Of a stretch of DNA of 64,000 bases, positions 36,543-39,362 are shown piece after piece. Location: positions 1,243-65,242 of the forward strand of contig CALVKM010000004.1 in NCBI GenBank assembly GCA_944332705.1. Direction: 5' to 3'. This stretch comes from an uncultured Bacilli bacterium. GTDB taxonomy: Bacteria; Bacillota_I; Bacilli_A; RF39; UBA660. Below the pieces are notes generated by a model. It was not told the origin of the DNA. It did no database searches and was given only the letters and a program-made list of their open reading frames with translations. Made by a program: the position numbers and the translations under genes. Each line of letters starts with the position of its first letter. The first letter of the stretch is position 1.

Positions 36543-37073
36543 TTATTTTAATAAATCCGCTAGATAAAGTTCATCTTTATTATGTTTTTTTATATGCTTA
36601 TATTTTTTTAAATTATCTACTAAGTTAGATATTCTTTTCCCTCCATAATAATTTACAAAAAATTCACTTGATTGATTATATTTAACTTTATTATAACGAA
36701 TATTTTTTATAGCAAATCCTTTCGGCTTATCTTTGGATTTTAAAAATTCATTATATAAGCCTTCATTTATAATTAATAAAATCTCAATTTCCGGCAAAGT
36801 ACAATATTTATATATTCTATTTGAAGAAACTATATCTTTTAACTCCTTAGGAATAATTAATTTATCTTTTTGAGTATCTCCAATTCGTAATATTGTAACT
36901 TCTTTATTATAGTTTTTTAACATGGAAATAATTGTTGGATTACTCAACTGTCGAACATGAAATGGTGTTAATTCGATTAAGTCATCTCGAGTAATTTTTA
37001 ATTTATTTGCATCCAACAATAAATTCATTATTGCTTTTTCATTATTTCCTTCGCACATCATTAAATACTTCAT
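36543..37073 (-). CDS. Small TOPRIM/RloB-like protein, partner of upstream ABC-type ATPase
   Basis: N-terminal LMMCEGNNEKAIMNLLL (Toprim Glu-Gly motif as in RloB/DUF4276/OLD), central RIGDTQKD, C-terminal LPEIEILLI; start overlaps ATPase stop (TAATG). Confidence 0.45.
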   Translation of the reverse strand: MKYLMMCEGNNEKAIMNLLLDANKLKITRDDLIELTPFHVRQLSNPTIISMLKNYNKEVTILRIGDTQKDKLIIPKELKDIVSSNRIYKYCTLPEIEILLIINEGLYNEFLKSKDKPKGFAIKNIRYNKVKYNQSSEFFVNYYGGKRISNLVDNLKKYKHIKKHNKDELYLADLLK

Positions 37074-38194
37074 TACATTAATTCCTTTTTAAAATCCATT
37101 AAAGCTTCATAATCAACCGCTGTTCCAAAGGCATTATTATAAAATTTCTTGCTTTTAGATAACTCTGGTCTGAAATTATAATTTAAATACATATTTTCTA
37201 ATTTTATTTTATCATTATATTTTGTTATATAAATATTATCTGTTCTATTAAATAAATCTAATAGTTCCGGATAGTGAGTGGTAAATATTAATGTAGCGTT
37301 ATGTTTATTTACGCTTTTATCTTTATATAAATTTATTAAATTTTCAACTAAAGTTTTATGAAAATGATTTTCTATTTCATCTATTACTAAATCTGCTCCA
37401 AATAATAAAGAGTATATAGCAAAAGTAAATAAACTAAAACCTTTAGTTGTACCACTGGATAATAGTTTATATAATTCTCTACTATTAACTATTTTAGTTG
37501 TTTTATTTGTATAATATATTTTATATTCATCCTCTTTAAGTTTTGCAATATTCTCTAAATGTTCATCAAACATTTTTAATATTTTACTAATTATACTTGT
37601 AGAATTAAATAATTTATAAGTATCAAAAGCTTCACTATATCCCATATAATTAAAATCATCGCTTGATAAATATACTCCTCTTAATAATATTTTCTTTAAA
37701 ACATAATAAAGCATTGATGTATCATCTGGCAAATGAAAATTTGTTGTATCTACTTCTTCATATTTATCATAATTAAATAAATCTTTAGAATGGGTTTTGA
37801 AATATAATCTTTTATACAATAATTCATTTGCAAATGTTATAGTTTTAGTACTGCTTGGTAATAAATCTGTAATATATCTATAAATGTATCCTTCATGATA
37901 AAAAGTTATATCTAAATTTAACTTTTTATCTATAATATCAATTAAATAACTATTTTTCACTCTAAAAAATGATAATATTTCATATACTAAAGCGAGTAAT
38001 TCTACTGCTGTAGTTTTGCCAGAGGCATTTTTACCAACTATACCAATAGTGCTAAATGTATAAAGATTTTCCTTAATTTCATTTAATTCAAATTCTTTAT
38101 CTTCTTCTGTTTTATTAGCAACAGGAACATAAGAAATTGTAAAATTATCTTCACACAATTTAAAATTATTGGCAACAATTTTTAATAATTTCAT
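37073..38194 (-). CDS. ABC-type (AAA_21-like) ATPase of OLD/AbiL/PARIS-type conflict systems
   Basis: GKNASGKTT Walker A, LSSGTTKGF signature-like, LVIDEIENHFH Walker B/D-loop, FTTHYPELL H-loop; ATG at 38194 is 8 nt after GGAGG. Confidence 0.75.
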   Translation of the reverse strand: MKLLKIVANNFKLCEDNFTISYVPVANKTEEDKEFELNEIKENLYTFSTIGIVGKNASGKTTAVELLALVYEILSFFRVKNSYLIDIIDKKLNLDITFYHEGYIYRYITDLLPSSTKTITFANELLYKRLYFKTHSKDLFNYDKYEEVDTTNFHLPDDTSMLYYVLKKILLRGVYLSSDDFNYMGYSEAFDTYKLFNSTSIISKILKMFDEHLENIAKLKEDEYKIYYTNKTTKIVNSRELYKLLSSGTTKGFSLFTFAIYSLLFGADLVIDEIENHFHKTLVENLINLYKDKSVNKHNATLIFTTHYPELLDLFNRTDNIYITKYNDKIKLENMYLNYNFRPELSKSKKFYNNAFGTAVDYEALMDFKKELM

Positions 38195-38218
38195 ATACTT
38201 TTCCTCCATTTCAATATA

Positions 38219-38227
38219 ATTATATCA
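38219..38227 (-). promoter_or_regulatory. Extended -10 promoter element upstream of the ATPase gene
   Basis: Minus strand TGaTATAAT; no good -35 at 17 nt. Confidence 0.4.
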
Positions 38228-38283
38228 CATTTTACGTCAAAATATACATTTTTTTTGTATTTTTTGAAATTTAGTTAAATTAT

Positions 38284-39315
38284 TTAAAAATATAATCTGT
38301 TGTATTCATTAGTTGATACCCCCAAATATTTAATTGCTTCTTTTTTACTTATTATATTTTCTGACTCTAATCTAAATATTATCTTTTTTTCTTTTAATGG
38401 ATGTTCTTCAACAAATTTAAGTTGTTCTTTTTTTAAACCTTTTTTTGATAACTGAATAAATAAATTCCTTTTTTTAAATTCATCTATTATCCCAAGATAA
38501 TAAAGTCGCATTATAACAGCATTTAATGAAACTTTATAATTAGTAGCTAGCATAAATATATCATTAAGAGAAATATTTTTTATTAATTTATTTCTTCCTA
38601 TAGCTAAATCACTTTTTATACTAAATTGTGGCATCAACAAACATGATGCAAAATAATTACAATATTTTTCTTTATCTTTCTGACTTAAATCTTCCTTAAA
38701 ATTCAATATTAAATGTCCTAATTCATGAGCTAATGTAAATCTATTTCGTTCATATCCTTTAGAAGATAAAATTATGAACGAGCAATCATTTACCTTGCCA
38801 CTAAAACCATCAAAATTTTCTGAAAAATTTATTTCTAATATTAAAAAGTCATTATCTTCTAATTTATCAGTTAAATTATCAAGTGGTCCACTTTCAGAAA
38901 CTCCAAGTAGTTTTCTAACCTTTAGAGCAATTTCTTCAATTTCACTATAATTAGATACATTAAATTTCCATTTTTTATCAAAAGAAACAAATTCATCCGC
39001 CAAATTTAATATTTCTATGTATTTAGATATTTCATCTTTGCATAATAATTGTAATCCTTCAAGTTGTTTTTTACTTAATTGAGAATTTTTTCTATAATTG
39101 CCAAATTCTATTTTAACAGCTGGATAACTATATACCAAATCAGATATATTTACTTTTAATATTTTAGCTATTTCAATTAATCTAGTAGAATTTGGAGTCA
39201 TAATATCATCCTCATATTTTTTAATAGTTTGATGTGACACTCCTAAAAGATTCGCAAGATCTCGCATGGATAATCCATTTAATAACCTATATTTCTTTAT
39301 ATTATTTCCTAGCAT
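38284..39315 (-). CDS. Fusion regulator: N-terminal XRE HTH + C-terminal ImmA/IrrE (M78) metallopeptidase domain
   Basis: LSMRDLANLLGVSHQTIKKYE HTH; FTLAHELGHLIL HExxH motif; ATG at 39315 is 5 nt after AGGAGG. Confidence 0.8.
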   Translation of the reverse strand: MLGNNIKKYRLLNGLSMRDLANLLGVSHQTIKKYEDDIMTPNSTRLIEIAKILKVNISDLVYSYPAVKIEFGNYRKNSQLSKKQLEGLQLLCKDEISKYIEILNLADEFVSFDKKWKFNVSNYSEIEEIALKVRKLLGVSESGPLDNLTDKLEDNDFLILEINFSENFDGFSGKVNDCSFIILSSKGYERNRFTLAHELGHLILNFKEDLSQKDKEKYCNYFASCLLMPQFSIKSDLAIGRNKLIKNISLNDIFMLATNYKVSLNAVIMRLYYLGIIDEFKKRNLFIQLSKKGLKKEQLKFVEEHPLKEKKIIFRLESENIISKKEAIKYLGVSTNEYNRLYF

Positions 39316-39333
39316 AAATACCTCCTTGTTTAC

Positions 39334-39362
39334 ATTATACAAAATAATTATATTTTTGTAAA
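39334..39362 (-). promoter_or_regulatory. Sigma-A-type promoter of the HTH-ImmA gene
   Basis: Minus strand TTTACA - 17 nt - TATAAT, 7 nt upstream of the SD (very short leader). Confidence 0.45.

Follow-up and report, generated by a model that had tools for sequence, protein, structure and literature searches.

Do three adjacent genes that resemble a phage-sensing switch in the genome of an uncultured bacterium belong to one system? This question is raised by a 64,000-nucleotide stretch of DNA (hereafter the window) from an uncultured Bacilli bacterium of the RF39 lineage (UBA660; assembly GCA_944332705.1, contig CALVKM010000004.1), in which three open reading frames (ORFs) stand head to tail on the minus strand. 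They encode a fusion of an XRE-type helix-turn-helix (HTH) domain with an M78 (ImmA/IrrE) peptidase, an ABC-type ATPase, and a 176-aa protein with Toprim-like features (Table 1). A first-pass annotation, made from the letters of the sequence, had proposed that they form a three-gene defence module, with the fused regulator as a damage- or phage-sensing switch for an ATPase-nuclease pair. The three ORFs, the ATPase motifs, the TAATG at which the ATPase stop overlaps the start of the small gene, and the HTH-HExxH fusion are all present as described there, and the ATPase/Toprim-like half of the proposal gained support from a match to AbiLi and from conserved adjacency. The three-gene switch did not, with the regulator absent from loci that carry the pair. 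The best explanation overall, and one we consider probable, is that a compact AbiL/RloAB-type pair lies beside an orphan Rosmer-like regulator, as two independent cassettes.

The ATPase and the small protein form a self-contained, horizontally mobile two-gene unit (36543-38240) with its own promoter. We searched for relatives of the small protein in 185,579 species genomes (one genome per species), which yielded 217 matching stretches, 80 of which were fetched. An ATPase homologue (45-91% identity) stood directly in front of the small gene, on the same strand, in all 76 loci that held upstream DNA, and the two genes were also adjacent in 12 of 12 IMG/VR viral contigs. Stop and start codons overlapped by 1 or 4 nt in 74 of 86 loci, indicating translational coupling. 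Surroundings of the pair varied widely: the nearest upstream ORFs at 66 loci represented 104 Pfam families, each found in three loci at most. In phage contigs the pair was located about 2 kb from terminase and portal genes, or beside a serine integrase, a placement typical of a moron. Hosts were mostly gut and rumen Bacillota (RF39-like Bacilli, Erysipelotrichaceae, Lachnospiraceae, Oscillospiraceae, Ruminococcus and Phascolarctobacterium).

The larger partner is an AAA_21-type ATPase whose characteristic motifs (Walker A GKNASGKT at residues 54-61, the ABC signature-like LSSGTTKG at 245-252, Walker B DLVIDEIE at 268-275, and TTHY at 305-308) are invariant or nearly so among 27 homologues. It matched AAA_21 in Pfam (1.1e-14) and, among PADLOC models, AbiLi (PDLC02335) best (6.6e-35, residues 4-362 against profile positions 47-282 of 326), followed by AriA (4.2e-18). 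These results support the earlier placement of the protein, from its Walker A, signature-like, Walker B and H-loop motifs, in the class used by OLD, AbiL and PARIS. Its AlphaFold2 (AF2) model (predicted local distance difference test score, pLDDT, of 88.5) resembled Rad50 heads (3e-12) and the Septu/retron protein PtuA in Foldseek, with matches in the range 3e-12 to 1e-9; phmmer searches of the ATPase against the Protein Data Bank (PDB) returned P-loop-level matches only.

If the pair works like PARIS, AbiL and the NetFlax AAA:TOPRIM_OLD pairs, its ATPase may act as a sensor or antitoxin that binds the small nuclease and holds it silent. A phage-derived cue, or a change in the state of the ATPase, would then free or activate the nuclease, and a two-metal acidic site (E8/E12, D66, E95/E97) could cut tRNA or DNA, leading to growth stop and abortive infection. 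In PARIS, AriA holds AriB, and AriB cleaves tRNA after the trigger (PMC11464382). Structure prediction of the ATPase-small protein complex gave weak support for binding: the interface score (ipSAE) was 0.58, compared to 0.00 for the best control, with runs agreeing in at least 96% of contacts and a partner pLDDT of at least 86. Of 80 solved complexes, 58 attain this mark, as do 2 of 110 mismatched pairs; scores of 0.60 or lower account for only 7 of the 80 and for both mismatches. In one genome of the same genus (G519; L131, 1-1220) the small gene has been cleanly deleted and the last ATPase codons altered, with the rest of the ATPase intact. Loss of the effector with the ATPase kept thus looks tolerated, a polarity that an effector or toxin role of the small protein would allow.

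The pair is probably an anti-phage or toxin-antitoxin system. A narrower possibility is that it is a selfish addiction module, stabilizing the DNA that carries it and playing no part in phage defence. AAA:TOPRIM_OLD pairs do act as toxin and antitoxin in Escherichia coli, and the NetFlax study only speculates on an abortive-infection role for them (PMC10440598); the patchy, cassette-like distribution of the pair, and the genome that lost the small gene and kept the ATPase, would suit such a module as well. However, all tested named systems that combine an ATPase with a Toprim domain (PARIS, OLD, Gabija and AbiL) are anti-phage (PMC11464382), moron carriage in temperate-phage contigs fits superinfection defence, and addiction and defence roles are not mutually exclusive. 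We therefore regard a purely selfish module as unlikely.

What kind of protein is the small partner? Its sequence begins MKYLMMCEGNNE, and an exhaustive profile search (E <= 1e-3) placed it in a family of at least 812 clusters at 50% identity, nearly all of ~170-190 aa and mostly from gut and rumen Bacillota and their temperate phages. The protein matched no family in Pfam (E <= 0.01), PADLOC (E <= 1), NCBIfam or PHROG, and PADLOC recognized AbiLi in this locus but nothing for its partner. The pair is also smaller than the systems with names, as the first-pass annotation had remarked. DUF4435 (PF14491) matched neither the protein nor anything else in the window's own genome, where RloB was also not found, and the listing of cluster members held no public names for the family. 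Across 54 diverse members, M1, E8, G9, D66, P94, E95 and E97 are invariant, and E12 and R63 nearly so; acidic residues make up almost the whole invariant set, which lies at strand ends of the AF2 model (pLDDT 94, predicted template modelling score 0.89).

A profile of these 54 members aligned collinearly over 146 columns (hhalign; P 1.4e-4, score 34.2) with a profile of 15 RloB (PF13707) proteins drawn from genomes. Scores were 11.8 +/- 2.2 (maximum 16.9) for 60 column-permuted controls and 10.5 for the reversed alignment. The alignment pairs cEGxxE of the small family with EGxxTE of RloB, RIxD with vfDxD, and TxPEiEIL with SNPCFEiW. In structural comparison, an exhaustive VIA search ranked PH0156 (2p62) first (Z 8.2, 158 residues aligned) and the Toprim plus helical region of Burkholderia pseudomallei OLD (BpOLD; 6nk8) second (Z 6.2, 141 residues), with GajA at Z 4.9 and Ts OLD at Z 4.6; the C-terminal Toprim region of OLD and GajA also made up the top Foldseek rows. 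PH0156 is reported to be the top HHpred match of a lactococcal DUF4435 protein AriB (PMC11381338). The metal ligands of BpOLD are E400/E404, D455/D457 and T506/E508, plus K562 (PMC6755086). Judged by order and spacing along the sequence, E8/E12 have the same i/i+4 spacing as E400/E404, D66 would take the place of D455, and (T92)-E95/E97 that of T506/E508. From remote homology together with fold, we conclude that the small protein is a putative minimal Toprim of the OLD/RloB/DUF4435 clan; the Toprim-like reading of the first-pass annotation is supported by the RloB profile alignment, and the 2p62 and OLD matches and the conserved acidic residues would fit it.

Other comparisons of the family were less informative. 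For DUF4276-like proteins, alignments with single sequences were limited to the N-terminal EGxxE (P 0.002-0.006), and the one DUF4435 protein tried gave no alignment, both families being too scarce in the sampled genomes for profiles. Profile searches against PDB sequences returned nothing from one alignment of the family and only spurious MEF2 matches (E ~0.1) from another. Structurally identical clusters in the ESM Atlas (TM 0.89-0.94) carry the label 'GNAT family acetyltransferase', which we treated as a mislabel with no supporting Pfam family; the name is probably a propagated misannotation. Separately, the small gene of genome G505 (L140, 1535-2057) appears as two tblastn pieces, which suggests a frameshift.

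Several points weigh against our reading of the locus. Phage defence and nucleic-acid cutting are ascribed to this exact family by analogy with the PARIS, AbiL and NetFlax pairs, and tblastn with the small protein found no homologue in collections of cultured phages and plasmids. Neither the Pfam RloB hidden Markov model (HMM; PF13707) nor the PADLOC AbiLii HMM matched the 176-aa protein, and single RloB sequences gave no signal against its family; the 15-sequence profile was needed, and the relationship to RloB is a remote one. D66 is followed by T/S/K-Q/x, such that the second Asp of the Toprim DxD motif is not conserved. Z scores of 6-8 fall in the range where VIA warns of a common alpha/beta arrangement, and CheY-like receivers reached Z 5-6. 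Finally, a terminator scan detected no terminator between regulator and ATPase. Transcription from the regulator promoter could thus run on into the pair, and the two may be coupled to some extent in this one genome, although we consider such an influence very unlikely.

Some of these observations would also fit a small protein that serves as a non-catalytic adaptor or regulator of the ATPase, with a Rossmann/CheY-like flavodoxin fold in place of a Toprim nuclease. Receiver domains and other three-layer alpha/beta proteins scored Z 4.5-6, the Foldseek E value to OLD was only ~0.03, the DxD motif is incomplete, and no family HMM matched. Yet the best structural matches extend over the full chain and take in its C-terminal helical portion (158 residues for 2p62 and 141 for 6nk8, versus ~90-100 for receivers), the alignment to the RloB profile covers each of the three acidic motifs, in order, and acidic residues at strand ends dominate the invariant positions. 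A non-catalytic adaptor is improbable on this evidence, and we retain the minimal Toprim as the preferred assignment.

The third gene has a different history. Since the regulator matches 15 RmrA models in PADLOC over its full length (best 2.9e-42, residues 11-349), phrog_2439 (3e-64) and, far under the 335-bit cut-off, the NCBIfam spr1629 family (1.5e-39, 136 bits), the HTH-M78 fusion is of a known type, contrary to the first impression that it fits no named system. One chain carries both HTH_3 (8.7e-14) and Peptidase_M78 (7.4e-12) in Pfam, with HELGH encoded at 38713-38727; the PADLOC models CapP (5.3e-21) and CapH (1.4e-4) also matched, but RmrA models scored far better. Homologues of the regulator were found in 17 of 200 genomes of the same order, though in none of the 10 same-genus genomes of that order-wide sample. 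In the order, an ORF of 165-193 aa comes after each of the 13 intact close homologues and overlaps the regulator 3' end. These partner ORFs have weak PIN matches (3e-4 to 4.5e-3, under the gathering score), and NetFlax reported an ImmA(D25)-PIN association (PMC10440598). RmrT matched none of the three window proteins in PADLOC.

In the window, the cognate partner of the regulator is cut to nine codons exactly at the cassette join. DNA of the closest regulator homologue in the order sample (L112, 69% aa identity) can be aligned to the window over 39363-38256, reaching 28 nt past the regulator stop. In the window the partner's ATG survives and opens a frame that reads MNTTDYIFK-stop; from ~38262 onward, the window sequence instead follows the ATPase promoter of locus L001, the closest relative. 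Because its cognate partner has been deleted to nine codons, we interpret the regulator as an orphan and not as a dedicated switch for the pair. This second cassette (38256-39499) would comprise an RmrA-like HTH and M78-peptidase regulator/antitoxin with an autoregulated promoter, the weakly PIN-like partner having been lost. In L112 itself, an ORF downstream of the regulator and PIN-like pair (3157-4023) has a weak HipA_C kinase match (3.9e-5) and may be another gene of toxin-antitoxin type in that islet.

Genomes of the same genus hold the cassettes apart. The slot between the amidase-LysM gene and cmpB occurs in at least five states: empty (L134, L135, L137, L138 and L139), with the pair only (L001 and L132), with an AraC-like gene and a VirD4 paralogue only (L130), with these two plus the ATPase but no small gene (L131, the locus of G519), and with a 98%-identical regulator and its intact PIN-like partner only (L133, genome G510). 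The window contains all three cassettes (AraC/VirD4, regulator and pair). In L001 this site has the pair and lacks the regulator, and because congeners hold the cassettes separately at the amidase-cmpB site, the triad is a one-off mosaic and not a conserved system. Recombination would have placed two independent cassettes side by side in this variable slot. A CTGCAG-bearing segment (~84-110 nt) that is single-copy in the window's own genome also occurs at cassette joints in G510 (C8 near 24072) and, as three overlapping matches, between the VirD4 paralogue and the ATPase in G519 (C46:3407-3673); it may be a recombination joint.

At the other end of the slot, the 3' end of the AraC-like ORF (window 40925-41380) overlaps DNA that AraC-less genomes keep as intergenic sequence downstream of the amidase gene (L001 4725-4800, L133 2706-2774). 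The last 23 AraC-like codons remain as a remnant in G510.

Promoter-like hexamers stand before both units, as the first-pass annotation had proposed, with 11 of 12 consensus positions for the regulator and 10 of 12 for the ATPase. Such sites are not enriched in this AT-rich DNA, however (35 found versus 31.8 +/- 6.2 in shuffled sequence), and their assignment comes from comparison between genomes. We assign the downstream promoter to the pair because it is conserved in L001, whose upstream context differs; in both L001 and L132 the amidase gene lies upstream instead. The upstream promoter belongs to the regulator cassette because L112 homology starts at 39363. An AT-rich inverted similarity between the two promoters (I6/I7) was considered as a shared operator and rejected, since the element on the ATPase side is kept in the regulator-less L001. 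The palindrome ATACA-N7-TGTAT near the ATPase promoter could be an operator for some factor or a remnant of the cassette border.

Could the fusion nevertheless serve a three-gene system as a dedicated switch that senses damage or phage and represses the pair until peptidase activation or self-cleavage? All three genes share a strand, the ATPase start follows the regulator stop after just 90 nt, the scan found no terminator in that interval, and RmrA-like proteins partner many different toxins (PMC10440598). Against this, a check of gene neighbourhoods found the pair conserved and a regulator homologue at none of the 80 genome loci and none of the 12 viral loci; HTH_3 or M78 occurred in at most 1 of 66 immediate upstream neighbours. 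L001 and L132 carry the pair at the same site, with the same promoter and without the regulator, G510 has the regulator with its own PIN-like partner and without the pair, and in the window a nine-codon stump of that partner sits at a sharp homology break. We consider a dedicated switch very unlikely, and the proposal of a three-gene module does not survive these comparisons.

The least credible alternative, a housekeeping DNA-repair duo like RecF (ABC ATPase) and RecR (Toprim), could draw on the Rad50-like ATPase fold and on a weak match to the NCBIfam RecF N-terminal model (4e-4, far below cut-off), but presence and absence of the pair at a single hotspot within one genus, its rarity (217 stretches among all the species genomes searched), its members in phage contigs and its highly variable genomic contexts make such a role highly improbable.

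Coordinates of all features are collected in Table 1. Lengths given there are 373 aa for the ATPase, counted from the ATG behind GGAGG (the ORF listing has a longer version of 378 aa), and 343 aa for the regulator, counted from the ATG behind AAGGAGG (the ORF listing starts at a TTG, 39342).

Table 1 Features of the ATPase-small protein pair, the regulator cassette and their surroundings in the window.
Feature	Position	Strand	Description
Small protein gene	36543..37073	minus	176 aa; mini Toprim/RloB-like; putative nuclease effector or toxin of the pair
ATPase gene	37073..38194	minus	373 aa; AAA_21/AbiLi-type ABC ATPase; putative sensor or antitoxin
Regulator gene	38284..39315	minus	343 aa; XRE-HTH + M78 (ImmA/IrrE) peptidase fusion; RmrA-like, orphaned here
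Pair promoter	38213..38240	minus	TTGACG-16-TATATT, 10/12; region kept in L001, without regulator there
Palindrome ATACA-N7-TGTAT	38241-38262		Just upstream of the ATPase promoter -35; conserved in L001
Recombination junction, regulator cassette/ATPase cassette	38256..38262	no strand	L112 homology ends at 38256; L001 ATPase-promoter homology from ~38262
Remnant of the regulator's PIN-like partner gene	38280..38309	minus	9 codons, MNTTDYIFK*; aligns with start of 165-aa L112 partner (MNTLNQIL...)
Regulator promoter	39334..39362	minus	TTTACA-17-TATAAT, 11/12, best score in scan; L112 homology begins at 39363
CTGCAG-bearing repeat region	39375..39484	no strand	Left edge of regulator cassette; direct repeats D4 + D5
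Terminator-like hairpin	39499-39518		Between upstream VirD4-like gene and regulator
Amidase-LysM gene	41382-42734		One border of the variable slot
cmpB	35947-36528		Other border of the variable slot

The new element at this locus is an unannotated mini-Toprim family, the HTH-M78 fusion being already known. We see about an even chance that the 176-aa proteins are a separate type of minimal Toprim effector and, with their AbiLi-like ATPase, make up an unnamed anti-phage system missed by Pfam and PADLOC models. If so, that system would be smaller than any other split-OLD system and would offer a tractable model of ABC-ATPase gating of a Toprim nuclease. Systems that combine an ABC ATPase with Toprim (OLD, Gabija, PARIS and AbiL) are a major branch of bacterial immunity. 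Within it, this cassette would stand for a very compact offshoot that current annotation lacks and that is common among uncultured gut Bacillota and the prophages they carry. The amidase-cmpB slot is a natural example of the swapping of defence and toxin-antitoxin cassettes at one site, and the regulator a natural example of a regulator/antitoxin left behind after toxin loss. The locus also holds a lesson for annotation, namely that gene adjacency in a single genome is insufficient to define a multi-gene defence system.

Comparison with known systems places the two cassettes in different company. The regulator shares its XRE HTH and M78 peptidase domains with ImmR/ImmA of the integrative and conjugative element (ICE) ICEBs1 and with CapH/CapP of the cyclic-oligonucleotide-based anti-phage signalling system (CBASS). 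In the window, however, both domains are fused in one chain, and a VirD4 paralogue and the ATPase pair flank the fusion gene, with no adjacent ICE excision or CBASS genes. The regulator is closer to RosmerTA, in which an RmrA HTH-M78 antitoxin comes with a variable RmrT, and to the spr1629-type Xre-COG2856 antitoxins, given its matches to RmrA models and the overlapping, weakly PIN-like gene that follows its relatives; the toxin partner in the window is reduced to nine codons, so no toxin-antitoxin pair is left.

The pair, in turn, resembles several split systems. PARIS, AbiL and MADS3-4 are listed as a defence class that combines an ABC ATPase with TOPRIM (PMC11464382). PARIS shares the split between ATPase and Toprim, the AriA match, and a nearest structure (2p62) that is related to DUF4435 by literature report, but the small protein has no DUF4435 match and is about half the size of AriB (35 kDa), the ATPase has 373 aa compared to ~53 kDa for AriA, and trigger and substrate are here predicted by analogy. 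The NetFlax AAA(D29):TOPRIM_OLD(D44/D60) pairs are likewise bicistronic and include examples from Bacillota (C. algidicarnis and S. agalactiae), in which Toprim_OLD/RloB-like proteins are toxic in E. coli and neutralized by the adjacent AAA ATPase (PMC10440598). AbiL (AbiLi and AbiLii of Lactococcus lactis) and the RloA/RloB genes of type I restriction-modification loci differ from the pair in that its partner has 176 aa versus 183-241 aa for the RloB proteins analysed here, lacks an RloB Pfam or AbiLii match and the second Asp of DxD, and in that the AbiLi profile is covered only in part. Like the pair, however, they consist of adjacent, co-oriented genes for an AAA_21 ATPase and then a Toprim-clan protein, and the strong AbiLi match of the ATPase, together with the alignment of the small-family profile to RloB at EGxxE, D and PxxE, suggests that these are its nearest counterparts among the systems compared.

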